DNA of 30,137 bases from an uncultured virus (IMG/VR IMGVR_UViG_3300034520_000374). Lineage: Duplodnaviria; Heunggongvirae; Uroviricota; Caudoviricetes. Positions 5,558-29,473 of the stretch are shown here, piece after piece. Positions within the stretch are counted from its first letter, which is position 1, and each line of letters begins with the position of its first letter. The notes below the pieces were generated by a model. The model was not told the DNA's origin and did not search any database. It saw only the letters and a program-made list of their open reading frames with translations. A program made the translations under genes and the position numbers. The stretch lies in IMG/VR virus record IMGVR_UViG_3300034520_000374; one strand, written 5' to 3'.

Positions 5558-5790
5558 TTGATAGAGTTCTTCAAGATAATTTTTGAGGAAGCTCCAAAGT
5601 ATTTAGAGTAGTAGGGGAGCGCTGGCAGCAATCCCATCAATTTATTGAGGTGGGAGGTTGTAATCGAAGGTTTGCTACAACCAAGAATGAACGCTGACCC
5701 TAAAGTTATGCTTGTGTTTATAATAATTGGATTAATTCATAACGAAATAAAGTTCCAGCTTGAGAAAAGGTTGCATAAGGAAGGAAGTGA
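5558..5790 (+). pseudogene. Possible decayed small gene
   Basis: RBS-like AAGGGTGGTG, then TTG 5558 (MIEFFKIIFEEAPKYLE), TAG TAG at 5609-5614; the same frame continues as the 5645 ORF with a hydrophobic segment VMLVFIIIGLI. Confidence 0.3.
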
Positions 5791-7124
5791 TGAGCTTAAT
5801 GAGTCAGGTAAGGTCATACAGTCCTATCAAGTTTCTACGAGTGAAGAATTTCAGGAACATCGGAGACATAACAATTAACTTTGATGAATCTCCAATAGTC
5901 TGCCTCGTAGGCGACAACGAGTCCGGTAAAACATCAATCATAAAGGCTTTTGCGGTATTAGCCCTGCACGCATACCAAAAAGACCAGAAGGACTTCATTA
6001 GAGACGGCACAAAAGGCTTCGGGATAGCATTAGGTTTACAGGACGGAACTGTAATAACACGTATAAAAGGTGTAGGAGTAAACACTTATAAGGTTGAGAG
6101 ACTGGATAAGACTGTTTGGGAGACATCCAAGATAGACGCTGGGCTTCCAGTTGAGGTTCAGGAAATAATGGGTCTTCTTGAGGAGCCTGAAACAGGCGAA
6201 TACTTGCATGTGAGAACTTATGAGGACAAATTGCTATTTATAGTTACACCAGGTAGCACAAACTACAAGGTGATGTATAACGCACTCAAGGTAGAGTACT
6301 TAACGAAAGCTATCAGGCTTGGGATTAACGAGACAAATGCGTTGAAGTCTAAACTGGACGACAATGAAAAGAGTATAAAGACACTTCTGGAAGAAGTGCG
6401 GAAGATAAAGATTTATGACATAGAGCCTGCAGTCAACATTAAGAAAAGGCTCCAAGGTCAGGTGGCTATACTCGAGAAGCTTGAGCGTGCCAAAGAGTTG
6501 TGTGATAATACACGGAGGATAGAAGAAAGACTTGGAGCAATAAATTTAATAGGCAGTGCTGGAGTCAAGGAAATTAGTCTTGGTGAAGCATTAAGATTTA
6601 AGGCTGTCTACAATCTGTTAAATTCTGTAGCGGATATCAAGAGAAGGTTAGAAGTATACGATAATCTCAGCAGCTTAAGAAGTATTGACGATACGATAAT
6701 CAGAAAGATTTTGAGCGTTAAGACAAAAATGGCTGAGCTTGAGGGTAAAAAACGGGTGGTACATGAGTTTCAAAATTTGAGTGGGTTGAAGGAAATCAAT
6801 GTAGGCGTGGCAGAAAAGCTCAGGCGTGCAGTGGCTATCAAGAGCAATATAGCTCGCATAGGTAAACGTGTAAAAGTTTATGATTTGACCAATGCGCAGG
6901 ATATAGATACCAAAGTGTTGAGTACAGTGGAGAAGTTCAAAAAGGCAGCCGGTTACTATAATAAAGCTCTTGAGACCTATAACGAGCTTAAAAATATAGT
7001 AGCAAGCATTGAGACAATTCAGAAAGAACGGGACGAGATGCTCAGGAAACTTGGGGTAAGAGTAGTTGAGTGTCCTAAGTGCAATGAGCTGATACCGTTG
7101 GAGGGGGCGAATATATTTGGATAA
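5790..7124 (+). CDS. Rad50/SbcC-like ATPase, N-terminal half ending in the CxxC zinc hook
   Basis: LRVKNFRNI strand, Walker A GDNESGKT (5910-5933), long helical arm, C-terminal CPKC (7071-7082); no signature or Walker B motif. Start likely ATG 5790 or 5799 after AAGGAAGG. Confidence 0.88.
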   Translation: MSLMSQVRSYSPIKFLRVKNFRNIGDITINFDESPIVCLVGDNESGKTSIIKAFAVLALHAYQKDQKDFIRDGTKGFGIALGLQDGTVITRIKGVGVNTYKVERLDKTVWETSKIDAGLPVEVQEIMGLLEEPETGEYLHVRTYEDKLLFIVTPGSTNYKVMYNALKVEYLTKAIRLGINETNALKSKLDDNEKSIKTLLEEVRKIKIYDIEPAVNIKKRLQGQVAILEKLERAKELCDNTRRIEERLGAINLIGSAGVKEISLGEALRFKAVYNLLNSVADIKRRLEVYDNLSSLRSIDDTIIRKILSVKTKMAELEGKKRVVHEFQNLSGLKEINVGVAEKLRRAVAIKSNIARIGKRVKVYDLTNAQDIDTKVLSTVEKFKKAAGYYNKALETYNELKNIVASIETIQKERDEMLRKLGVRVVECPKCNELIPLEGANIFG

Positions 7125-8067
7125 GGCAAGGATATTAATTTACGGAGACTTGCATTTAAGCTCGAAAAACTATGGAGCACATATAGACTACCCAAGAGAG
7201 TCTTTGCATTACTTTGAGGAGATAGCCAATGTAGCAGAGCGTGAAGGTGCAACCCATGCAATAGGTTTAGGGGACTTCACATTTGGAAGGTTCCACACAC
7301 TGGAGTACCGGATTAGCGTTGAGAAGGTGCTGGATAGGCTTTGGAGGATTACCGAGGGTAGGCACTATATGCTTAAAGGTAACCATGACTCAGCAACTTA
7401 CGGTATGACAGAATACGAGTATTACTGCAAGAAGGGTCTTCTTAAGCCTAGCGAGAACCTTTCAATAGGCGGTATTAATATATCAATGGTGGATAGCGGA
7501 AAGTACGAAAAGATGGACATAATACCTCCGGAAGAAGGTAAGACCAATGTAGTTCTGGCGCATGACTATTTCAAGTTCAAGGATACCCAGCTTCCTAACT
7601 ATGGGCAAGCAATAGAATTGGATGAATTTAGCAGGTGGTTTGGTGTAGACCTTTTGGTGTGTGGTCACATACACAATTTCGAGAGCTTCTCAGGTATGGT
7701 TGTGGACGGTTACAGGGCACGGAAAATGACCGTCATATATCTTGGGTGTATGGCCAGACCAGCATACAGGGAAGGATTCATGCAGGACATAGGTAAGCTT
7801 CTAATGCTCGATGTAGACGGCGAGAAGGTTGAGGCGGGCTTTATTGATGTGCCCTTATGGGCTTTGGATGAATCATTCAATCTTGAGGCAAAAGCGCGGG
7901 AAGAAGAGCAGAGTAAGCATTTAGTGGATATATCAGACATAGTAAAAAGGTTAGATGAGCATGAGAGGAATATAGGAAATCCTGAGGATTTAATTATGTC
8001 GCTTGAGGATATAGATATCAGGTACCGTAAAAAAGCGGTAGAACTGTTGCAGGAGGCACTTAAATAA
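7117..8067 (+). CDS. sbcD: Mre11/SbcD-like metallophosphoesterase nuclease
   Basis: GDLH, GDF, GNHD, LAH and GHIH motifs; RBS GGAGGGGG before TTG; overlaps the Rad50-N stop codon. Confidence 0.9.
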   Translation: MDKARILIYGDLHLSSKNYGAHIDYPRESLHYFEEIANVAEREGATHAIGLGDFTFGRFHTLEYRISVEKVLDRLWRITEGRHYMLKGNHDSATYGMTEYEYYCKKGLLKPSENLSIGGINISMVDSGKYEKMDIIPPEEGKTNVVLAHDYFKFKDTQLPNYGQAIELDEFSRWFGVDLLVCGHIHNFESFSGMVVDGYRARKMTVIYLGCMARPAYREGFMQDIGKLLMLDVDGEKVEAGFIDVPLWALDESFNLEAKAREEEQSKHLVDISDIVKRLDEHERNIGNPEDLIMSLEDIDIRYRKKAVELLQEALK

Positions 8068-8106
8068 TATTAGTGAAAGATTTGAAAATGTGGAGGTGCA
8101 TTTGAG

Positions 8107-8517
8107 ATGGAAATTAGTCTCGAGAGGATAAAGAAGTATAACGAGACGCTTAAGGCTTACAATGAGAAGGGGGCACAGTTAAAAGCTGAGTTATCATTCA
8201 ACATAAATGAGCTTAACAAGCTGTGTCAGGAACTATCGCAGGAGCTTGGGGTGGAGGTCACAACGGATAACATCGAGGAAGTGTACAAGAACTACGTAAG
8301 CAAGATTGAGGAAACCTTGAGAGTCGGTGAGGAGATTTTTGAACGTATACGTGCTGAGGAGCAGGGTACAGTAGTGCAGAGTAGCGAAGGCATTGAGCCA
8401 GATGATGCTGGCGCAGTAGAACCAATTGGCATTGGCAGTGGAGATGATAAAGGAAACCTGCTTGGGAAAGACTTTCAACTGCCTAATATGTTCGGCAAAG
8501 GAACTATAAAAATTTAG
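8107..8517 (+). CDS. Small coiled-coil protein with disordered tail
   Basis: GGAGGTG RBS; first ~85 aa are helical/heptad-like with an ELGV turn; acidic linker; ends FQLPNMFGKGTIKI. Confidence 0.85.
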   Translation: MEISLERIKKYNETLKAYNEKGAQLKAELSFNINELNKLCQELSQELGVEVTTDNIEEVYKNYVSKIEETLRVGEEIFERIRAEEQGTVVQSSEGIEPDDAGAVEPIGIGSGDDKGNLLGKDFQLPNMFGKGTIKI

Positions 8518-8538
8518 CGTGTGAAAGGAAGGTAGAAC

Positions 8539-9762
8539 ATGAAAGTATCTTTAAGCGCACTGATAAATGCAGTTTATAAGGTAGGAGCTTTTACAGAAGG
8601 CCAGAAGAGCATCCCTGGTGTGCTGTTTGACATCAGAACTGATGAGTTTCGCGTTTGTTATTCTGACGGGCGTAAAGCTATCATCTCTAAGCTACCTTTG
8701 GTGAACGAGGAAGGATTTGAAGGTAAGTTAGTTATACCCTGGAATAATCTTTTAGCAGTGATTAATGCCAATCAGCCAAAAGGTATGATTTTTACCGATG
8801 AAATTGAGCTTGTCATTGGAGATGGCGTAATAGTAGTTGAGGCTGACAAGAAGATTAAAGTAAAGAGCAGTGAGGATGAAGTAGTAGACAAAGTAGTTTC
8901 CAGGCTGTCACAGAAGATGGTGTACCATAAGACTGAGGAAAGTGTCAAGTACGGTATATTAACTCGTGTGGATTATGATAGTATCTTTGAAAGTGCCGAT
9001 TTCGACCTTTGGGACAAAGAGACATTTAGGAGTATGCTTAGCAGGGCGTCTTCCGATAAGCTTGGCATGAGTTATATTTCATCATCCAGGCAGGCTTGCT
9101 TTGCAATCAACGTGGCTTTTGTAACGAACATTCCTATTGATGAGCAGATTTCGTTTGGGTTTACTGTATCGGCAGCACTTGCATCAGCAATCGTGAATAT
9201 TCTATCCAAGACACCTGGGGATAAGGTTCGCATAAGCGTATCGGAGAATAGGTACATGAACATCGTATCGGATGATGCAACCACAGGAATTTGGTTCGAG
9301 ATGCCTCCAGGGAATAAATCCGACCTAGCAGTACTCAGCAGTTTTGAAGGTAAGGAATATAACAAGTACAGGATGGCGTTCTGCAGACCAGTATTGGAGA
9401 ACGTGCTCGAGTGCATTATAAGCTCCGACAATAACGAGAAGGTAGAAATGAGTTTAACAGACATTAACGAAGGAGAGCCAGCAATAAGAATCTCAACTAC
9501 GAGCAGCGGAGCATCAATGGGCAATGATTTCAGGGTTGTGATTGAGCATCTGGTGGATAATGTCGGCGATGTAAAAGACCTGAAGCTGCCGATTAATCTT
9601 AAGGTGCTTAAGGATATGGTTAACAACTGCATCGAGATGTATATTGTGTTTGACATTGCAAAAGACGATAGAGGCACCTACTTAAGGGTTGGGGATATCG
9701 TTGGTGCAGGTGAAAATGACCTTAAATTAGGTACCATTCACTACACCATGATTGGAAAGTAG
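8539..9762 (+). CDS. DNA sliding clamp (DNA polymerase III beta-like)
   Basis: 407 aa. N-terminus KVSLSALINAVYKV..IPGVLFDI..FRVCYSDG..EGKLVIPWNNLLAVI follows the beta-clamp domain I pattern; AFCRPVLENVL and INLKVLKDMV follow domain III. Replication context. Confidence 0.7.
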   Translation: MKVSLSALINAVYKVGAFTEGQKSIPGVLFDIRTDEFRVCYSDGRKAIISKLPLVNEEGFEGKLVIPWNNLLAVINANQPKGMIFTDEIELVIGDGVIVVEADKKIKVKSSEDEVVDKVVSRLSQKMVYHKTEESVKYGILTRVDYDSIFESADFDLWDKETFRSMLSRASSDKLGMSYISSSRQACFAINVAFVTNIPIDEQISFGFTVSAALASAIVNILSKTPGDKVRISVSENRYMNIVSDDATTGIWFEMPPGNKSDLAVLSSFEGKEYNKYRMAFCRPVLENVLECIISSDNNEKVEMSLTDINEGEPAIRISTTSSGASMGNDFRVVIEHLVDNVGDVKDLKLPINLKVLKDMVNNCIEMYIVFDIAKDDRGTYLRVGDIVGAGENDLKLGTIHYTMIGK

Positions 9763-9775
9763 AGCAAGCAGTGAG

Positions 9776-9810
9776 AAATAGCAGGCTACATCTATAGCCT
9801 GCTATTTTTA
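9776..9810 (+). terminator. Rho-independent terminator
   Basis: AAATAGCAGGCTA-CATCTA-TAGCCTGCTATTT followed by T-rich sequence. Confidence 0.85.
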
Positions 9811-9844
9811 TATATTTTTGCTACATGTAAATGACAAGTTAGCG

Positions 9845-9873
9845 ATGTCACCATACGCTAAAGTATTTATAGT
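9845..9873 (+). promoter_or_regulatory. Possible sigmaA-like promoter
   Basis: ATGTCA-N17-TATAGT between the terminator and the GGGAGGT RBS of ORF 9902. Confidence 0.35.
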
Positions 9874-9901
9874 GTAAAAACGAATTTGGGAGGTATAGCG
9901 T

Positions 9902-10294
9902 ATGGTGAGCTTTATTTATGGGGTTTTATCCTTTGTAGCTATAGCTGGAGTGTCCTGTTGGGTTAGTGCCTGCATCATGAGGGTCGAGCACGAGATTGCT
10001 AAGGGCAAGGGTATAGGGCGTATAGGTAAAAATAGAATAAGGGGTATAATTTGGAAAGAAATCAAGAGGGGCTTTACGGTAGCTTTCTTTGGCATGTGGA
10101 TTTCTCTTGAGTACCTTATGAAGTGTAATCATCCAGACCATATTCTTGGAAGTATGCTGTTGAATTTGAACGTAGCAAAAATTATCGAGTTGCCTATGGC
10201 CATTGTATCAGGCATTTTGTGTGTGCTATTTACTGTAGCAGGGTATTACATCTACATGGAAATGGAGGAGAGAACTCATGCCCATCAAAGATAG
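9902..10294 (+). CDS. Small membrane protein (about 3 TM segments)
   Basis: GGGAGGT RBS; three hydrophobic segments; overlaps the start of Rad50-C. Confidence 0.8.
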   Translation: MVSFIYGVLSFVAIAGVSCWVSACIMRVEHEIAKGKGIGRIGKNRIRGIIWKEIKRGFTVAFFGMWISLEYLMKCNHPDHILGSMLLNLNVAKIIELPMAIVSGILCVLFTVAGYYIYMEMEERTHAHQR

Positions 10295-10961
10295 GGTGTC
10301 AGAATTTATTAATCAGGTTGACGAGCTGGAGGTACGCCAGCTCGCCAATATAAAGACAAAGGAGAAGCTTGAGAAAAGTGTGCAGAGGCTCATTGAGGAG
10401 TCTAAGGTTACAGCAGAAGAATTAGAGATAGTCACTAACGCAGTAAATATTTTACACCAGATAAGTGATGAGGCCATTCAGAAGTCGTACGAGTTTATTG
10501 CGGAAAACATAAACGCAGCTCTAGAGCGCATATTCACAAACACTACTCGTCGGATAAGGCTCAAGGAATATACGAGGGGGCAATATCCACAGCTTGAAGT
10601 TGAATTAATCGTTGAAGGCGGCAAGACAAGGTCGTTGCGGGCGGATAGCGGTCACGGTATCATGCAAATTATATCGCTACTTTGCATACTTTGCATAATC
10701 GTAATAACAAAAAGCAGAAGGACGCTGTGGATTGACGAGATACTTTCAGGGCTGTCGGCTAATTCGAGAATGATTATTGACGAAATACTCTGGAGCTTTG
10801 CCGAAATAGGCTTCCAATTCGTTATTTCAGAACACGGCTTCGTGCCCAAAGGAGCCAAAGTCTACAAGCTAAAAATGGAAAACGGAATCAGTAGGATTGA
10901 AGACGAATACATCGAACAGGACGGTGTATACCTTGACCTCAGCGGTAATTCGGTAAATTAA
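10278..10961 (+). CDS. Rad50/SbcC-like ATPase, C-terminal half
   Basis: ~80-aa coiled coil, ABC-signature-like DSGHG (10644-10658), Walker B/D-loop LWIDEILSGLS, H-loop ISEH; no Walker A; GGAGGAG RBS. Confidence 0.88.
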   Translation: MPIKDRVSEFINQVDELEVRQLANIKTKEKLEKSVQRLIEESKVTAEELEIVTNAVNILHQISDEAIQKSYEFIAENINAALERIFTNTTRRIRLKEYTRGQYPQLEVELIVEGGKTRSLRADSGHGIMQIISLLCILCIIVITKSRRTLWIDEILSGLSANSRMIIDEILWSFAEIGFQFVISEHGFVPKGAKVYKLKMENGISRIEDEYIEQDGVYLDLSGNSVN

Positions 10962-17838: not shown

Positions 17839-17851
17839 GTTAATAAGGCAT

Positions 17852-17909
17852 AAAAATAAAGACTGCACCACTTTGATATTATCTGGCGGTGCAGTTTTGT
17901 TTTTATTTT
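17852..17909 (+). terminator. Rho-independent terminator
   Basis: AAAGACTGCACC ... GGTGCAGTTTT followed by GTTTTTATTTT. Confidence 0.75.
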
Positions 17910-17977: not shown

Positions 17978-19078
17978 ATGGGCAGTGTAATAAACTTAGA
18001 TAAGCTCATCAGTAGTATGATACACTTTCCAAAAGTAGACGGTATACCACTATATACTCGTGTTGACAATCAGATAGATGAATATATAAGAAGTCAACTT
18101 AACAAAAGCCCTAAATGGGTGGAGTACTCTAAAAGGATTTATGGCTCACCCGATAACATCAGGAGAGTGTTTATAACTTACAAAGGGGTTTATGTGCATT
18201 TATATAGGCCTGTAGCAGGAGGAAAAGACAAATCACTTGTCAGAAAAACCTTGTTTTCACCAGCATTCGATGTGGTGTACAACGATATAATGACCAGTGC
18301 CATGACAGGTGCAAGGTCCAAGTATAAAGTTAGGCGATACGGTTTGAGGGCACTGTATAAACCTTGGGTGTGCTCCAATGTAGAAGAAGTCTACTTTGAC
18401 TGGACCTTATTCTTAAGTGAGGATATCAGGAATATAGGTTTCGGAGACCTTTTAATGTATTACAAGAGCGGAGAAAAATCCGTTGAACCGATTAAAACTA
18501 TATTCGAAGCAGCTTGTTTGTCAGACGGGTGCAAGCTGGCAGATAGGTATCCAAGGTTAAAATGCATCGGGTACATTAGCAGCCTGGAGGAAATTTACAA
18601 TGCTATCCCAATCAAGCCTGGTGCGGATTCTCTGGATGATATGATGAAGCCTTGGTACAACAATAACGTGCTCATTGAGGCGGTTAGGAATGGCTCTTGT
18701 AATGCGGCTGTATATGACATACCTGGTGTGCCGAAGCTCAATGCAAAATACTCTGTGAAAGATGGAATATACCTCTTCGATAGGGATGTACTTAAGGATT
18801 ATTTCTTGGCACTTGAGGAGAGAATTAAGCAATACCAGAAAGGCAAACGGCTCAGCGAAGTAGAAAAACAGAAAGAGGAACTGATTAAGAAGGTAAAGAA
18901 CACCAAGAGCGGGCTGGAGCTTCTAATAGACGAGATATACGCCAAAGAAGGTGCCGAAAAGGCCCGGCTAGCCTTGAGAATCAGTTTTGATGGGCTGAAG
19001 AAATCAGAAATAGAGGCAATACTGAACGAGATGAGCACAGAAGGAAATGAAAGGTACAGAGCATTATTAGGTTTATAG
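17978..19078 (+). CDS. Hypothetical protein sharing a domain with the downstream ATPase
   Basis: ATG 17978 after AAGGGATGGTG; the track start at 17873 lies inside the terminator. 366 aa with a helical C-terminus. Confidence 0.85.
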   Translation: MGSVINLDKLISSMIHFPKVDGIPLYTRVDNQIDEYIRSQLNKSPKWVEYSKRIYGSPDNIRRVFITYKGVYVHLYRPVAGGKDKSLVRKTLFSPAFDVVYNDIMTSAMTGARSKYKVRRYGLRALYKPWVCSNVEEVYFDWTLFLSEDIRNIGFGDLLMYYKSGEKSVEPIKTIFEAACLSDGCKLADRYPRLKCIGYISSLEEIYNAIPIKPGADSLDDMMKPWYNNNVLIEAVRNGSCNAAVYDIPGVPKLNAKYSVKDGIYLFDRDVLKDYFLALEERIKQYQKGKRLSEVEKQKEELIKKVKNTKSGLELLIDEIYAKEGAEKARLALRISFDGLKKSEIEAILNEMSTEGNERYRALLGL

Positions 19079-19094
19079 AAGGGAGGGATGAGCC

Positions 19095-22000
19095 ATGAGC
19101 GTACCAAAAGACATTGTAGAGAGACGAGCAAAGCTTATAAGTGGGCTATCTGGGCCTGACGAGAGAGCTCGCAGGGTTAGGTATAACATGTATTTAAGGT
19201 ACGGAGACCTTGCAATAGCTATCTACAAAGACCCAGTAAAAGAGGGGTTAATACGTGGAAACCCTGATACATTTGCTGTATTGACAGACCCTACAGTAGC
19301 TTCGTGGGCTTATGTTGGCAAGAGTAGTGATGAGTTCAGGCTAGCCGCAGATAAGTATCCTGAGCTCAATAAGCTGTTTTCTAATATTGAGGCTTTACAA
19401 AATGGCATAGCCAAAATAGTGTCAATTATAGGCAGCGAAAGGAAGGATATATCATACGAGGAATTTGTTAAAGGCATAACGGAATTTAAGCCAAACAATA
19501 TAGTTCCTCTTATGGATGACATAGATAAGACCGAGGAAGAGCAATTTATAGACACGGACTCCTACGAAAACCATGACGATATAGAAATAGATGAGTCGGA
19601 GTACTATGTTGACGATGAGGAAGCTGAGGTGGAGCCAGAAGTAGAGACTGAAGCGGAAATAGAGCCAGAAGAAAGTAGCGGAAACCTCTGGGAAGATGAG
19701 CCAGACCCAGAGCTAGAGGCCAACACAGCAAGAGTGATGTATGTTTACAAGGATTTATATGAGGCTGGCTTTGAGCTACATGTCCCTTACGGTATTCTCG
19801 TAAAAGAGGGCGTATTAAGGTTAGTAAATGGTAGGACGGAAGTTAAGAGCAACGCTTCATTTGCTAGGATATACGAGTTAATAAATAGTATAACAAACAA
19901 GTTTTTAGTTCAATCGGAAGTAGTAAATGGGATACCTGCTAGCAAGCTCAGGGACATAGAAATGAGGATGGGGACAACATATTATCCCGCATTTCAGCTT
20001 GGCAATTTATACGGGATAATAGGGGACAAAAAGGTAAAAACGTGGAGTGAGCTGGCAAGCATCCTGGAGCCAGAAGTAAGGAGAAATATAAAAGCCAACT
20101 TGGAGGCTGGGAAGGACATAAGGTTCATCACGGATGCGCTCACGACATCAATAGTTGTATCGGAGTTTGACTCTAAGGTAGCGTTAAAACTTCGGATTAA
20201 TATAGGTAATAGATTGCTGGACACTAATCTTTTCAAGAGCGAATACGAGAAAAGAAGAAGCAGCATAATGGCAGGTATAGGAGAGCTCTTCCATATTCAG
20301 CAGCTACGTACGGGTGTAGTGGAGGTAATAATAGTTTTTAACAGAGCAGCATACCATAACAGACCTATATTTGCTTATGAGGCTGTCCAAGAGTTGAAAA
20401 AGCGCGGACGTGAGCCTAGCATATCCAATATGATTTTAGGTCAGGATACATCCGGAAAAATTTATATAAACAACCTCAACAGGCAGAACGCGAGCATAAT
20501 ATTGATTGGCGCAGGCCCTCGTTCAGGGAAAGGCGTACTAACCTTAAATCTTGTTGGAGCTATTTTATCAGATGGTTATCCTCTAGTTTATGTAGATGGT
20601 AAGCCGGATATGGCTAAGGAACTTTGGAGGGTTGCCGAAAAGCATGGTATTAAGCCAGCAGTTTGGGATGCTTTTGACCCTCACGATAACAGGCTCGGAA
20701 CAGGAGCTCCAAAAGAGGTAAGGGCTGAGAACAGTACACTGCTCGGTATACTGGCATATCTAAAGGTTTTACAGCTGATGATGGCTGCTGCACACCTCAG
20801 GTCGACCAAAGGCATAATGGTAGGTGGCGCAGATAAAAGACCATTCTTCGTATTTGATGAGGTATTAGCGGTTCAACAGAACCTTAAAGGATGCTGGGGG
20901 TACGTAGTTAGTAAAGCTAAACAAGCTAAGAATAAGCAAGGTGACGAAGTAACCGAGTGGTGCAAAGCCATAGTAAAATGGGTAGAGGCACTATCATACA
21001 GTTTATCAGGAACATTAAATTCACAGCTTCCTATGAGCGGCATATCTACGGTTTGGCTATTCCAAACTATACAGCCTACTACATGGAGCGGGCTCAAGCT
21101 TAATGGTTTGGACAGCGATTTTGACTTATTCAAGCATCCTATTATGGCCAGAACTTCCATTAAAATACTCGGTAAAGGCACCACAGACAGTGAATATGGT
21201 TTGGGCAACAGAGAAATAAAAGGAAATAAGATTGTAGCGGAATTAATTGCGGCTGAGGGAGGCAGACACTTTGCTTATACGGAAGTGCAGAAAATTACGG
21301 ATATTGAGCAGATAAAGATATTTAAGCCATACCTGGTTCTTAATAGTGCAGAGCCCGATGCTGACTGCGTGAGGGAGCTCAAAAACAATGTATCGAGCGA
21401 GGTATGGAACGTAATAGCTCCTGGAGGAAGGTTGCATCCAGCCGCAGGCTTTGAGGGATTCCTACAATTACTTGGGCCACAGGTTATAGGCAACCTGGCT
21501 TTAGGCAGGGCATTTCTAGAAGAAATAATGCAAGCAGTAGGGTTAGCCGATAAATACAGTTCAGTTGAGGAATATCTGTATGATGCTTCCGTCGAGTCTT
21601 TCAAGTCTCTTGGCAGCCTGGTGCAGGACCCTGAGGTAGACGAGGAAGCTGGGCCTGATGGTTACATGTATGTCACTGGAGAAGGAGAAAAAGGAAGTCC
21701 AGAGGGATTTAGCTATATCACTTCTAATAAGTTGGATGATACACAACAAAAGAGTCAGATTGACACTTTTGGGGTACCATATAAGGTTGTTGGTGGTGCA
21801 AGAGGTGCTGTAGATGAGCAGTTTGAGATGGAGAGACAGGCGCGGGAAGCTCTTGAGAACAGCATAGAAGTTGAGACTGATGAAGGCGTAAGCACAGACG
21901 GTATGGAGGAAGTTACAGATAACGATTTACTGAGGGCAGTAGAGCAAGGTGAGCTAGACGCCAAAGAAGCTCTCAAGATACTTGTAGAAAAGCGGATGAG

Positions 22001-22862
22001 ACAATCTACGAGTATGACCGGCAATGACGGTAGGAGAGTTGTCGTAGACCAAACGCAGACTCAGAGTTTTTCTAAACTGACCAAAGATAACTGCATAGAC
22101 TGCCGTAATGTGTCTCCAGGACCGTTGTCAATGATTGAAAAGCTTATGTTAGATACACCTGCTGGAGCTCAAAGGTACATTGACAAATTGTGGAACGCAA
22201 TTCTTGAAGGTGTAGTATCTAAAGGGTATAAAAAGGCGAACATTACGAGAGTAAGTATATATGGTGGTCAGATGTACGTCAACGGTAGAATAGTTAACCT
22301 TAATGGAGTTATCGGCGGATACGAAAATATAAGGTTACGCGACATAGTGTCCTTCAGAGCTCTATTCAGGAAGTTCTTCATGATTAGAGAGTTAAGGCTA
22401 GACATGGATATGCTTAGGGTAGCCATAGCAGAACTTGGAGATAGTCCGATAGAGAAGCTTTTTAGACTTGGACAGAAGCTTGAAATAGTGTATATTCAGA
22501 AAGAAAATGGGGAAGTTGTAAGCTTTGATAGGACAAGTGTAATGAGTAGTAAGGCAAAGGAAATTTCCAGCAGGGGGCATGCAGCGAACGAGCTAGACAT
22601 GTACTGTATGGCAAAGTCTAAAAATAAGTGGTCCGATAACAGGACTGGAGACAACCTATGGGCATTGAGGATGGCAAAGAGTGGTTTGTACACAGCAGGT
22701 AAGATGTTCATGGACAGGAATAAACCTAGTGTTGGACGTGCAGCAATAATAGCGGGAGCAAGTTTAATGGTTGGCACAGTTGGCGCGGTAGTATGGGGCG
22801 TATCGAGATTTATTAGCGGTGTTCTTGGATTGAGCAGCGCTCTAACAGGTACCAATAGGTAA
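19095..22862 (+). CDS. Large VirD4/FtsK-HerA superfamily P-loop ATPase with acidic linkers and C-terminal hydrophobic segment
   Basis: MILGQDTSGK, Walker A IGAGPRSGKGV (20508-20537), YVDGKPD, Walker B FFVFDE (20844-20861), GISTVWLFQ; GGGAGG RBS. Confidence 0.75.
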   Translation: MSVPKDIVERRAKLISGLSGPDERARRVRYNMYLRYGDLAIAIYKDPVKEGLIRGNPDTFAVLTDPTVASWAYVGKSSDEFRLAADKYPELNKLFSNIEALQNGIAKIVSIIGSERKDISYEEFVKGITEFKPNNIVPLMDDIDKTEEEQFIDTDSYENHDDIEIDESEYYVDDEEAEVEPEVETEAEIEPEESSGNLWEDEPDPELEANTARVMYVYKDLYEAGFELHVPYGILVKEGVLRLVNGRTEVKSNASFARIYELINSITNKFLVQSEVVNGIPASKLRDIEMRMGTTYYPAFQLGNLYGIIGDKKVKTWSELASILEPEVRRNIKANLEAGKDIRFITDALTTSIVVSEFDSKVALKLRINIGNRLLDTNLFKSEYEKRRSSIMAGIGELFHIQQLRTGVVEVIIVFNRAAYHNRPIFAYEAVQELKKRGREPSISNMILGQDTSGKIYINNLNRQNASIILIGAGPRSGKGVLTLNLVGAILSDGYPLVYVDGKPDMAKELWRVAEKHGIKPAVWDAFDPHDNRLGTGAPKEVRAENSTLLGILAYLKVLQLMMAAAHLRSTKGIMVGGADKRPFFVFDEVLAVQQNLKGCWGYVVSKAKQAKNKQGDEVTEWCKAIVKWVEALSYSLSGTLNSQLPMSGISTVWLFQTIQPTTWSGLKLNGLDSDFDLFKHPIMARTSIKILGKGTTDSEYGLGNREIKGNKIVAELIAAEGGRHFAYTEVQKITDIEQIKIFKPYLVLNSAEPDADCVRELKNNVSSEVWNVIAPGGRLHPAAGFEGFLQLLGPQVIGNLALGRAFLEEIMQAVGLADKYSSVEEYLYDASVESFKSLGSLVQDPEVDEEAGPDGYMYVTGEGEKGSPEGFSYITSNKLDDTQQKSQIDTFGVPYKVVGGARGAVDEQFEMERQAREALENSIEVETDEGVSTDGMEEVTDNDLLRAVEQGELDAKEALKILVEKRMRQSTSMTGNDGRRVVVDQTQTQSFSKLTKDNCIDCRNVSPGPLSMIEKLMLDTPAGAQRYIDKLWNAILEGVVSKGYKKANITRVSIYGGQMYVNGRIVNLNGVIGGYENIRLRDIVSFRALFRKFFMIRELRLDMDMLRVAIAELGDSPIEKLFRLGQKLEIVYIQKENGEVVSFDRTSVMSSKAKEISSRGHAANELDMYCMAKSKNKWSDNRTGDNLWALRMAKSGLYTAGKMFMDRNKPSVGRAAIIAGASLMVGTVGAVVWGVSRFISGVLGLSSALTGTNR

Positions 22863-22895
22863 AAGCTGTTTCAGCTTTTACCTATACCTGTTTTA
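22845..22895 (+). terminator. Rho-independent terminator
   Basis: TAGGTAAAAGCTG-TTT-CAGCTTTTACCTA, extended by ACAGGTA/TACCTGT, then TTT. Confidence 0.8.
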
Positions 22896-22959: not shown

Positions 22960-22997
22960 CTTTAGGGTAAAAATCGAATATACTTTAGGGGTAAAAT
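22960..22997 (+). repeat. Tandem CTTTAGGG(G)TAAAA motif
   Basis: CTTTAGGGTAAAAAT at 22960 and CTTTAGGGGTAAAAT at 22983. Confidence 0.6.
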
Positions 22998-26208: not shown

Positions 26209-26496
26209 ATGTTCGATAAGGACATAAAAAGGGTAATAATAGGTGTAGCCGATGACATAGAACAAGATAAAAATGCCTGGACGCCATCATGGCGTCCGGG
26301 CTATGATGAGGCATCAATAAACATAAGCCTACTTGTAAATTATATTGCCAGGACAACCGGGACAAGTCTGGATAGCCGTAGTTATGGTGAGTTTTATGAT
26401 AGTTGTTTGTTTTCACTTTTAGAGGAATTAAGGAAGCGTAAGCTTTATAATCGTGTGGAGGGAGATATACTGTATATCTTTAGGAAGGTAAAGTGA
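26209..26496 (+). CDS. Hypothetical protein (95 aa)
   Basis: AAAGGAGGTG RBS. Confidence 0.8.
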   Translation: MFDKDIKRVIIGVADDIEQDKNAWTPSWRPGYDEASINISLLVNYIARTTGTSLDSRSYGEFYDSCLFSLLEELRKRKLYNRVEGDILYIFRKVK

Positions 26497-27110
26497 GGCG
26501 TGGAGTCATGAGCAGTATGAGCGTTAGAGAAGCAATGAGTTTGCTTGGATTTACATCTGTTGATGAGTTAAGCCAGGAGAGTATAAAAGTAAAGTGGAGG
26601 AATATAATCAAGAAGATTCATCCTGACATTGGCGGGGATGAAGAACTTACAAAGAAGTGCAATATGGCATATGAAGTTCTCATGAACGCATTGCCAAATA
26701 TAGATTACTTGCACAAGGTTGAAAAGAACGTTATAAAGCTTATAGGCATCAAAGACCTAGTAGCCATTTATGAGGAGAGGGCACGTAGTTCTAAGCTCGG
26801 TGTGAACTTTGGGGATATAATTGGTGGAAAGAAGAAAGAAGAAAGGTTGCTTATTGAGATACCTGTAGCTATTAAGTTTAGAGATTTGATTGTCGAGAAA
26901 AGTTTTTTAATGCCACAAAGCAAAAACGATATTTATACATGCACAATTTTTCTGGATGACCATGACGATATATTTAAGGACGAGGACATAGAGGTCATTG
27001 TGGTTGACAAGGCTGTCCATAATGCTATGGGGTGCAAGAAAGTATTTAAGTTTGATTTTGGATATAATGTTACAGTTCTAGTACATGTTGAAAGGGTCAT
27101 GGCTACGTGA
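26493..27110 (+). CDS. J-domain (DnaJ-like) protein
   Basis: AMSLLG..IKVKWRNIIKKIHPDIGGDEELTKKCNMAYEVL with intact HPD; start may be ATG 26508. Confidence 0.9.
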   Translation: MRRGVMSSMSVREAMSLLGFTSVDELSQESIKVKWRNIIKKIHPDIGGDEELTKKCNMAYEVLMNALPNIDYLHKVEKNVIKLIGIKDLVAIYEERARSSKLGVNFGDIIGGKKKEERLLIEIPVAIKFRDLIVEKSFLMPQSKNDIYTCTIFLDDHDDIFKDEDIEVIVVDKAVHNAMGCKKVFKFDFGYNVTVLVHVERVMAT

Positions 27111-27135: not shown

Positions 27136-27723
27136 ATGGATAGGGAAACATTAAGGGAATTGGTGGTAGACTATAGGGAAAAGGGGTATACCTTCTCAAA
27201 AATAGCAGAAATACTTAGGGAGCAGTATGGTATCGTAAAGGACAGGCAGAGTATTCACGGTATTTACAAAAGAGCAATCAAGAATACAGATGAGAAAAAG
27301 GAGTTGCTCGTTAATATTGCCAACCTTTACGTATTAGGTTATAAAAAGGCAGAAATCAAAAATATACTGCTTGGAATGGGAATCAAAACGTCCTACTACA
27401 CAATCAGGAATGTTATTAATGAAAACGCTGATTATATGCGGGAGGTACAGCTTGGGTACGTTTACAAAATAGCAACCTCGATATCAGATGGGAAATATTT
27501 AGAGGAAATCAAAGAAAGCATAGCATACAAAGGTGCACTTCCAACTGATAAGGGGTTCAAAAAGCTGTTAATTGAGGCATACACGCTTATAGTCAAGGAG
27601 GCATGTACTAAAGAGATAGCAAAGGTGTACAGGGACACTGATGATAGCGAAATTGTTGAGCACGTAATAGACAAGTTGGGTGTTAGGGGTGTGACAGTAA
27701 AGGATATAAAGGCAAGGCTTTGA
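27136..27723 (+). CDS. Putative DNA-binding protein with tandem HTH-like units
   Basis: GYTFSKIAEILREQYGIVKDRQSIHGIY and GYKKAEIKNILLGMGIKTSYYTIRNVI; TAAGGAGGT RBS. Confidence 0.7.
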   Translation: MDRETLRELVVDYREKGYTFSKIAEILREQYGIVKDRQSIHGIYKRAIKNTDEKKELLVNIANLYVLGYKKAEIKNILLGMGIKTSYYTIRNVINENADYMREVQLGYVYKIATSISDGKYLEEIKESIAYKGALPTDKGFKKLLIEAYTLIVKEACTKEIAKVYRDTDDSEIVEHVIDKLGVRGVTVKDIKARL

Positions 27724-27761
27724 AAACATGATTGTTTGTAAACTACCATTGAGAGATTAGT

Positions 27762-27802
27762 AAAGCCATAAAGCTGGGCGTGAACAGCTTTATGGCTTTT
27801 TA
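27762..27802 (+). terminator. Rho-independent terminator
   Basis: AAAGCCATAAAGCTG-GGCGTGAA-CAGCTTTATGGCTTT followed by TT. Confidence 0.88.
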
Positions 27803-27883
27803 CATTGTATAAAGCATGCTTAGCCTTATGCAGGTGGGAGTATATAAGGTTTATACAGCATCTTTAAGGACGTAAGGAGGTTA

Positions 27884-27995
27884 AAAATAGTTTTTAGCTA
27901 TACATTAGCATAGTGAAAATAGGTTTGGTAAATGACATTAAAAAATAAACATAAGGTGAAAATAGTTTCTGTAGCTACATTTATATAGTGAAAAA
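27884..27995 (+). repeat. Imperfect ~37-bp direct repeat, 75-bp period
   Basis: AAAATAGTTTTTAGCTATACATTAGCATAGTGAAAAT (27884-27920) versus AAAATAGTTTCTGTAGCTACATTTATATAGTGAAAAA (27959-27995). Confidence 0.65.
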
Positions 27996-28128
27996 TGTTT
28001 CTAACGGAGGCATTGTTGGTGTAATCCGTAGGGTAAATTATTTGGTGCCTATGAAGAACATAGATATCAAAATAAGCTTATTTACATTTAACGGCATAGT
28101 TGACATATAAATAGTGGCAAAGCATTAG

Positions 28129-28245
28129 TTTTTGCTCAAGTTAGCCGAGTGTAATTGGTGTTTGAGTTGATAGCAAACGACAGTAAGTTTATAGTCGAAG
28201 TTTGGAAGTTCAACTGGTTGCGACCAGGTTCAGTTGAGCATAAAA
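28129..28245 (+). ncRNA. Candidate multi-branched structured RNA
   Basis: Closing helix TTTTGCTCAA/TTGAGCA(T)AAAA encloses three hairpins; folded by eye only. Confidence 0.25.
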
Positions 28246-28636
28246 TATCGTAGTCATAGACATATTAACGAAAAATTTTTACCTTGCTCGTGTGCATGAT
28301 ATTGATTTTTTCTTAGAGTTAGGGTAAAATTGAATGAGAGGCGGTTTTCTGGAGCGAAAAAGTGGTGTGAAACTGGGGTTCTGGGAAAAATAAAGGGTAG
28401 GCAGGGTATAAGGTAGAGGGTGAGGTTAAGGACAACTGGAGAAAATTTCAAGGGGATGAGGTTCGAAAGCGTTAAAGATTGGGCTAAGCATTGGAGTTGT
28501 GGCGAGAGCCGAAGGCAGGGTTGTGTAGCTACAGGATAGCACAGCGTAAGGCGATAGATTTAACTGGTTTATAGTACAGGAATAAGGCTAGATAAATGTT
28601 ACTTAAATAAAACATGTGTGAAGGAGTGGTAAAGCA

Positions 28637-29473
28637 TTGAAATACCGGAATTACTTCGATGAAGGTTACATCGGGAGTAGGCTGGGTTCCTTCGAAGTTG
28701 TCGGCATACACAAGAGCGAATTCGGCAGGGCAGCTATATGGGATTGTAAATGCAGTAAGTGTGGCAAGGTTATCAGTGTAGTGGCCAGTGAAGCCATTAA
28801 TGGCAGGCGTCTACAGTGCGAATGTGGGAACACATTCAGTAGCAAGGAAAGTTATGATGAATGGAAATTTAGTAATCTTGATACTATCAGGTTAAGAAAA
28901 ATATACAGACGTATGCTAAGTAGGTGCTACAACGAGAACGACAGGAGTTATAAGCTTTATGGCGGTGCAGGCATTTCTGTGTGCCTTGAGTGGTTGGTCA
29001 GCTTCAATAACTTTGTTGGTTGGGCCATAGCTAATGGATATAAGCCTTGGCTGGACCTAAAGCGTAAGAATAATAAGTATGACTTTTCACCTGAGAATTG
29101 CTACTGGGGAGTTATTAACTGCAACGATGAGGAAACTTGCATAAACAGTGAGGAAATTGAGGAGTTATGCAGGGAATTTGGTCTTGACCCTGAGAGGGTT
29201 AAAACGGACGTTCAAAATGGAAAAGTCAATATAGTGCATTTGAGAGACATGCTATCACGTGGGAACATCAATAAGTCACTTAAGAATGACATTAAAAAGC
29301 TTGCCAGGATACGTGGCGAGCTTGTGGAGCTTGGGACAAGGTTGAGGGCATACAGTTATGTAGGTAAGGCATGGCCTGGGATTGAACACGTTGAGAAAGA
29401 TGTGGACACTTGCATATACAGGTTAAGTAGCGCATTGAATCGTATGATAAAGGAGGTAGACGATAGTGAGTAA
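28637..29473 (+). CDS. Phage HNH-type homing-endonuclease family protein with degenerate active site and C-terminal helical extension
   Basis: WDCKCSKCG, RLRKIYRRMLSRCYN..SYKLYGGAGISVCLEW..F..WA..NGY, FSPENCYW; AAGGAGTGG RBS before TTG. Confidence 0.85.
   Translation: MKYRNYFDEGYIGSRLGSFEVVGIHKSEFGRAAIWDCKCSKCGKVISVVASEAINGRRLQCECGNTFSSKESYDEWKFSNLDTIRLRKIYRRMLSRCYNENDRSYKLYGGAGISVCLEWLVSFNNFVGWAIANGYKPWLDLKRKNNKYDFSPENCYWGVINCNDEETCINSEEIEELCREFGLDPERVKTDVQNGKVNIVHLRDMLSRGNINKSLKNDIKKLARIRGELVELGTRLRAYSYVGKAWPGIEHVEKDVDTCIYRLSSALNRMIKEVDDSE

Follow-up and report, generated by a model that had tools for sequence, protein, structure and literature searches.

A hairpin-bounded ATPase–partner module conserved in pXO16-like megaplasmids and its predicted role

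The ~350 kb plasmid of Bacillus thuringiensis identified as pXO16 is described as very large and low-copy in passages of one review (PMC6199540). According to passages of another (PMC9673590), it has no identified relaxase or origin of transfer (oriT), yet moves non-mobilisable plasmids, retromobilises and transfers long chromosomal DNA. Motors of the FtsK/HerA superfamily are recognised by a list of features, which includes a sensor glutamine after strand 4 (passages of PMC11703096). Here we analyse two adjacent genes, A and B, in a stretch of 30,137 nt ("the window") of the uncultured virus record IMG/VR IMGVR_UViG_3300034520_000374, a contig of 154 kb. A previous reading of the letters alone, hereafter the original prediction, had seen in them a terminator-bounded pair of an ATPase and a paralogous adaptor sharing one domain. 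We find that A and B are a conserved, unannotated core module of a large family of pXO16-like megaplasmids, in which B, judged by its motifs, resembles a divergent FtsK-like ATPase and A is predicted to dock on it.

A conserved operon in relatives of pXO16

Both open reading frames and all ten motifs quoted for them were found exactly where the original prediction had placed them (Table 1). The genes are spaced by 16 nt, and Pfam and PHROG scans assigned neither product to any family. A longer form of A, from a TTG at 17873, is less likely because relatives start at the methionine used here. Strong hairpins flank the pair, as had been claimed of terminators: in 200 shuffles none matched either the upstream hairpin or the downstream one (z -6.9), which overlaps the stop codon of B. 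The latter begins about 10 nt later than had been noted, and a consensus terminator scan found it and did not list the upstream hairpin. In a non-redundant set of 37 related loci, 44 of the 46 gaps within the module measured ≤30 nt and the upstream gap was at least 100 nt in 25 loci; a hairpin with z below -3 preceded the module in 23 and a hairpin followed it in 17, these z values being rough, as they rest on 12 mononucleotide shuffles each. A and B form a hairpin-bounded operon, a genuine two-gene module. No conserved DNA motif was evident 3' of the module across the loci. The word TTTAGGG(G)TAAAA stands twice 3' of B (window 22960-22995), and one like it also stands behind B in pXO16; in other loci it was not evident.

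Table 1. Features of the A-B module (positions in the window; residues of the respective protein).
Feature	Position	Strand	Details
Upstream hairpin, likely terminator	17850..17906	.	U-rich tails on both strands; z -4.8 and -5.1; inverted repeat I15
Gene A, partner protein	17978..19078	+	366 aa; no Pfam, PHROG or PADLOC family; model pLDDT 91
A copy of the probable shared alpha/beta domain	18110..18592	+	~residues 45-205; SPxNIRR, SNIEEVYFD, RFPRL motifs
A C-terminal helical bundle, predicted docking surface	18911..19030	+	residues 312-351; absent from most fused forms
Gene B, multidomain P-loop ATPase	19095..22862	+	1255 aa
B N-terminal domain	19095..19499	+	residues 1-135; 2-21 and 66-74 predicted A contacts; absent from most fused forms
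Conserved pre-motor domain of B	19707..20321	+	residues 205-409; by position only, a counterpart of the FtsK alpha domain
ATPase core of B	20322..21614	+	Walker A AGxRSGKGV 20511-20537; hhhDxKP; Walker B DE 20856-20861; Q657 21063-21065
B copy of the probable shared domain	22155..22556	+	residues 1021-1154; separate gene in some relatives
Glycine-rich hydrophobic helix, likely membrane anchor	22740..22802	+	residues 1216-1236
Downstream perfect 14-bp hairpin, likely terminator	22855..22885	+	boundary of module

Homologue searches returned 41 A-like and 73 B-like proteins, and 125 related loci were collected, many of them near-identical (50 after redundancy filtering). The ATPase family has a sharp edge, with 603 clusters at E 0.001, 585 at 1e-10 and 538 at 1e-30. 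A was detected with an iterated A profile, whose E-values after iteration are circular. An A-family domain lay upstream of the ATPase gene or inside it in 112 of the 125 loci (directly upstream in 90, separated by one gene in eight, inside the ATPase gene in 14), so that the linkage expected of a dedicated system is borne out. Thirteen loci gave no such detection; eight of these have about 200 bases or less of upstream DNA and two have 0.6-1.5 kb, and in one (L113) A stands downstream of the ATPase gene. Four loci (L052, L116, L119, L121) show a four-gene module of A, a gene of 280-366 aa, the ATPase and a C-domain gene with the tail.

The element itself is capsid-less and akin to the conjugative megaplasmid pXO16. 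No virion genes (capsid, portal, terminase, tail) were found by Pfam (29 + 102 open reading frames) or PHROG (29 + 77) scans, which omit four frames spanning locus borders and cover a contig that is ~68% complete by CheckV. Nearly all long reading frames lie on one strand, the GC skew keeps the same sign over the entire contig, and the gene content comprises PolA, primase, DnaB, gyrase, a split SbcC with SbcD, and a cluster of HerA-like and FtsK ATPases. When the core of B was compared with 72,556 plasmid records, the matches were ten records of pXO16 only, and phage records gave none. Twenty contig genes match pXO16, mostly in the same order, with ~230 of its 350 kb compared. Its orthologous pair, ATN07_RS31555 and RS31560 (pAM65-52-2-350K, NZ_CP013277.1, B. 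thuringiensis sv. israelensis), is adjacent, lies directly after the SbcC C-terminal half, and adjoins the same primase/SbcCD cluster as here. The family profiles matched it strongly for the ATPase core (E 4e-110) and the C-terminal domain of B (C-domain; E 8e-34) and weakly for the A domain (E 0.007); the pXO16 A protein has 655 aa and is strongly diverged, against 366 aa in the window. Both genes are annotated as hypothetical proteins. The passages of PMC9673590 and PMC6199540 give no function for them, and a literature search on megaplasmids returned no title on the pair; the primary pXO16 papers (Makart 2015, 2018) may mention both genes.

Relatives with names come from Clostridia, Bacilli and Lachnospiraceae bins, and DNA of the element was found in subsurface sequencing runs, which may represent its source, and in one hot-spring study (0.62 of words). 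An A-B pair with adjacent locus tags (P0026, P0087) occurs in an archaeon-labelled bin, where it probably represents a mis-binned plasmid contig. Kinship to Inocle elements was considered and not established, and an FtsK scan of viral contigs, built from a two-sequence alignment, found nothing.

In pXO16 and many other loci the order primase, SSB-like, SbcC N-terminal part, SbcD, clamp-like, SbcC C-terminal part, A, B is kept, and SbcCD, clamp-like and DnaJ genes were the frequent neighbours in a survey of 52 loci. This order, together with the one-signed GC skew, would fit a service in replication or recombination, for instance if the pair served at the membrane to tether or drive the split SbcCD nuclease or the replisome that the plasmid encodes. 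We hold such a role to be distinctly improbable: the module is its own transcription unit by its upstream gaps and hairpins, the SbcC C-terminal half is within 8 kb in 22 of the 52 loci and absent from the 8 kb flank in 30, and in the window ~7 kb of accessory genes intervene between it and the module.

It should be added that SbcC/Rad50 is encoded in the window (5760-10961) by two genes, one for the N-terminal and one for the C-terminal part, with SbcD, a coiled-coil gene and a clamp-like gene of 407 aa lying between them; it is likewise split in pXO16. In 21 of the 52 loci the module has a small DnaJ-domain gene close by, often directly 3' (window 26493-27110; L016, L018, L069, L118, L123). 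Further downstream, where the G skew of the contig is strongest, a stretch of 900 non-coding nucleotides (window 27723-28637) contains a perfect hairpin of 15 bp and a direct repeat of 36 nt; it is a candidate origin region.

The motor of B and its predicted contact with A

The motifs GKGV, hhhDxKP, DE and Q are invariant in 49 of 49 diverse B cores. Compared with the superfamily features, the Walker A motif deviates, as the invariant GK is followed by G and not by S/T (GxxxxGK[ST]) in all 49. Walker B (hhhhDE) has its DE in every core, and the sensor glutamine Q657 is invariant after a hydrophobic strand, its position being assigned by motif order and not by structure. No conserved arginine was found before the sensor strand, where an arginine finger would stand; a mostly conserved one lies inside the P-loop. 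The element's Pfam-positive FtsK likewise has no arginine finger, and the transfer-cluster FtsK is without it in both the contig and pXO16. With Walker B and the sensor present, Walker A deviant and the arginine finger missing, we therefore treat B as FtsK/HerA pump-like and do not file it as a member.

In profile comparison the N-terminal part of the B core matched the element's own FtsK family with Prob 53% and P 1.3e-4 over 67 columns and the whole core with P 0.0065, and the likeness to the HerA-like ATPase was weaker (E 0.27 against a single sequence). The FtsK alpha domain PF17854 had no match on the contig, not even on the Pfam-positive FtsK. A QLPxSG motif common to B and the transfer FtsK was dropped, as it is restricted to the close clade of the window. 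At the C-terminus, the best 19-residue hydropathy exceeded 1.2 in 77 of 94 non-redundant tails and 1.6 in 42; the helix there is a putative membrane anchor, with the caveats that one relative has no tail and that a score of 1.7 is reached by a helix inside B.

Natural fusions of A to B suggest how the two proteins meet. Ten fused proteins (L047, L048, L049, L066-68, L111, P0077-79) have 94-130 residues between the A domain and the pre-motor domain, versus ~361 in the split form of the window, and do without the A bundle and the B N-terminal domain; therefore these two parts are predicted to dock. Three recent-looking fusions (P0085, P0086, P0089) retain all parts and three others have long spacers. 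Among the 14 fused loci, six (L018-L023) have a separate A plus an A-type domain at the start of B, five (L047, L048, L049, L067, L111) have no separate A upstream, and L046 is truncated at the contig end; in a further 13 cases the C-domain is encoded by its own gene. On a FastTree phylogeny of 51 cores, fusions need at least three changes (two forced by starred branches) and C-domain splits four, with several long branches making the placements unsure.

A complex model covering A, with its shared domain, and residues 1-135 of B, and thus neither the motor nor B's own copy of the domain, scored 0.72 against 0.00 for the best control. The score mark is reached by 116 of 157 solved pairs and two of 215 mismatched ones, a calibration that applies here only approximately, since the model was run on alignments of our own making. 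Runs agreed in at least 94% of contacts, with partner pLDDT of at least 89, and no solved relative of either chain was found by sequence. The new point is that the model docks exactly the parts that most natural fusions have lost: A is predicted to hold the B N-terminus by its C-terminal helical bundle and not by the shared domain. The proposal of a dedicated ATPase-plus-partner system is supported by linkage, tight spacing, fusions and this predicted interface.

A domain probably common to both proteins

The original prediction further held that five blocks match in order between A and the C-domain of B. In pairwise comparison the likeness is at chance level (best BLASTP E 0.53; 87-215 of 300 shuffles score equally), and shallow profiles matched in block 1 only (E 1e-3 to 0.04, not significant). 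Deep profiles aligned by hhalign were colinear over ~100 columns, with results depending on depth and trimming: Prob 74% and P 2.8e-5 over 99 columns, 56% and 1.1e-4, 38.7% and 3.2e-4, and 10% and 0.003, P values that are optimistic because the segments were picked after the likeness had been seen. Blocks 1, 3 and 5 were aligned in all four runs, block 2 loosely in two, and block 4 in one and missing in another, so the five-block claim stands in part. Controls failed, as reversed alignments gave E 0.18-0.27, none of 40 block shuffles reached the real score, and other domains gave E 0.06-0.6. In reciprocal profile searches, the C-domain profile placed A domains at 15 of its top 30 non-self matches, and the A profile found C-domains at one of 30. 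The models (pLDDT 91 for A, 87 for the C-domain) run in the same order of long helix, beta hairpin, helix, strand, helices and strand.

We conclude that A and B probably carry copies of one unnamed domain, and that the A domain and the C-domain are very likely homologous. The alternative is that the likeness arose by convergence on LRR-like strand patterns, which would concern homology only and leave the partnership unaffected. The chance-level pairwise scores, the A profile that does not single out C-domains and the modest hhalign probabilities speak for it; we nevertheless find it rather improbable, since the colinear columns include a beta hairpin that is not LRR-like, the likeness is lost in reversed and shuffled controls, helices and strands follow one another in the same order, and the domain does duplicate, as the second A-type copy in L018-L022 illustrates. 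The paralogy proposed for the partner is hence probable by profiles and structural order, with pairwise scores giving no help. No further copies were found by profile scan of the contig, and the idea that the B N-terminal domain is a third copy was rejected for the window, where comparison gave no match (E 0.06-0.2).

LRR-like strands had also been pointed out. Each domain does have two xLxxLxL strands, as in LRR domains (RNI-like, F-box, TAP/Mex67); the fold matches are weak (Z 3.0-3.4; PDB sequence E 0.07 or worse; F-box protein E 0.22), so the likeness is one of motifs, and there are only two units, which are joined to a beta hairpin and do not appear to form a solenoid. Foldseek gave nothing for A at E 0.001, and the best VIA match (Z 5.9) covered the C-terminal bundle only, so that the A domain itself was barely tested. 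The C-domain reached Z 4.1 at best, which is not significant, and the absence of a match does not show a new fold; ESM Atlas had no usable match for either domain.

The LRR-like motifs and their weak structural matches are one reason to think of an anti-phage or exclusion system, with these domains as sensors and the glycine-rich tail as membrane effector. HerA/FtsK ATPases are found in defence systems, and a restriction-modification-type gene lies 3 kb upstream in the window. We regard this as very unlikely, and of the roles first offered it is the least supported: the position in the backbone is fixed across deep branches, unlike that of mobile defence cassettes, the searches revealed neither a nuclease nor another effector domain, PADLOC 2.0.0 gave only marginal, partial, P-loop-level matches (E 0.001 and 0.004; two of eight proteins, none of them A), and the module was absent from the other plasmid and phage records searched.

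Segregation, transfer and comparison with known systems

In pXO16 the pair lies at 177.6-183.9 kb, and a cluster of FtsK, HerA-like and NlpC/P60 genes at ~338-350 and 0-3 kb. We infer that this cluster is tip, the 25 kb transfer locus of 16 genes with two ATPases and a wall hydrolase, and the pair is outside it. The annotated pXO16 FtsK, ~170 kb from the pair, is the ortholog of the contig's second FtsK; the idea that B is the known transfer FtsK was rejected, B being a separate gene. On the contig (G000:C1), positions 14000-39000 hold a transfer-type cluster with a clamp-loader AAA+, YdjM, a protein of 1632 aa, and HerA-like and FtsK ATPases, collinear with pXO16 327-350 kb and 0-3 kb. Genes for a 3264 aa surface protein and an M23 peptidase are followed at positions 78500-88900 by a run of small pilin-like genes whose products have hydrophobic N-termini; by eye this resembles a Tad/Flp pilus cluster, its small genes having no Pfam match.

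Transfer is the main rival role because the relaxase and oriT of pXO16 are unidentified: the pair could belong to the transfer machine without being linked to it, as an additional DNA motor by which DNA is loaded or pulled with no classical relaxase involved. Such a motor would go some way towards explaining how non-mobilisable plasmids and long chromosomal DNA are transferred and how retromobilisation occurs. This reading agrees with the search of pXO16 that found no tyrosine recombinase, with the match of B to the transfer-cluster FtsK among the compared P-loop families (the RSGK P-loop in common), and with a likely membrane anchor. We judge it unlikely all the same, as the pair is far from the transfer cluster in both pXO16 and the contig, that cluster already has two ATPases, and the usual neighbours are SbcCD, clamp-like and DnaJ genes, with a wall hydrolase as neighbour in only one tested case (L051).

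Our preferred reading, to which we give a probability of about 40%, is that the A-B complex is a membrane-tethered FtsK-type DNA motor for plasmid segregation. Segregation is favoured because the operon belongs to the backbone and neighbours replication genes, has no linkage to the transfer cluster, and occurs in a plasmid in which no ParA- or tubulin-type gene was found. Complete pXO16 had no ParA-type (AAA_31) or tubulin-type match, and the controls matched in 14/14 and 13/14 genomes. B would form a ring at the membrane, held by its C-terminal anchor, and A would dock on its N-terminus and supply the second copy of the shared domain. B would then hydrolyse ATP with plasmid DNA as its presumed substrate, the two domain copies might recognise DNA or a partner, and the motor would carry the plasmid, 150-400 kb in size, through the division or sporulation septum as it closes and so secure inheritance.

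Several observations weigh against this segregation motor. Pfam FtsK (PF01580) did not match B at E 10, no solved relative of B was found at E 5, and B has GKG for GK[ST] and no conserved arginine finger; B may therefore be inactive or have another substrate to pump. Nothing like the gamma domain of FtsK was evident in B, and the C-domain is without fold match. Moreover, the contig of the window encodes a ParA-like protein within the transfer cluster as well as a ParB_N-HNH protein, and the actin-type partition search was a weak test, its positive controls barely matching. DNA binding and a stability role are putative. In two loci with long upstream DNA (L051, L112) A was not detected, and in three of 125 (L031, L041, L044) B is split at one site by a 2.33 kb insert with TnpB. 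The insert of L031 (9045-11370) is of IS605 type by its TnpB, has no Rfam intron match, and its junctions are unlike those of a canonical group I intron.

We tentatively propose that pXO16-like megaplasmids, a widespread family of uncultured elements, are inherited or transferred by an undescribed DNA-moving machine, an FtsK-derived membrane motor with a rewired active site between two or three copies of one fold-orphan domain, one of them brought in by the docked partner. If true, this would add another class to the plasmid partition systems, or else supply the relaxase-independent step that is missing from the transfer of pXO16. pXO16 has long been studied, and the pair amounts to two named, unannotated, conserved genes that can be tested in a cultured plasmid. 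The family elements at present lie in viral and metagenome collections; the B core, matching pXO16 alone among plasmids and no phage, is a clean marker and can therefore be used to collect them.

Compared with the ParA, ParM and TubZ partition systems, the module is alike in pairing the gene of an NTPase with that of a small partner in one operon, here hairpin-bounded. It differs by the other class of NTPase, by an A without recognised DNA-binding fold, and by the neighbouring DNA, in which no centromere-like repeat array was seen. With FtsK/SpoIIIE and the pXO16-type transfer FtsK, B has in common the order of pre-Walker-A strand, Walker A, hhhDxK, Walker B DE and sensor Q, as well as acidic linkers and a likely membrane segment. 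In contrast to FtsK/SpoIIIE, it has the GKG P-loop, no conserved arginine finger and no gamma domain, is below the Pfam cut-off, and its likely membrane segment is C-terminal instead of N-terminal. A and B make up a real, widespread and unannotated ATPase-partner module whose function is predicted, and which appears new with respect to the known FtsK type by these variant features, together with a docked partner and a repeated unnamed domain.

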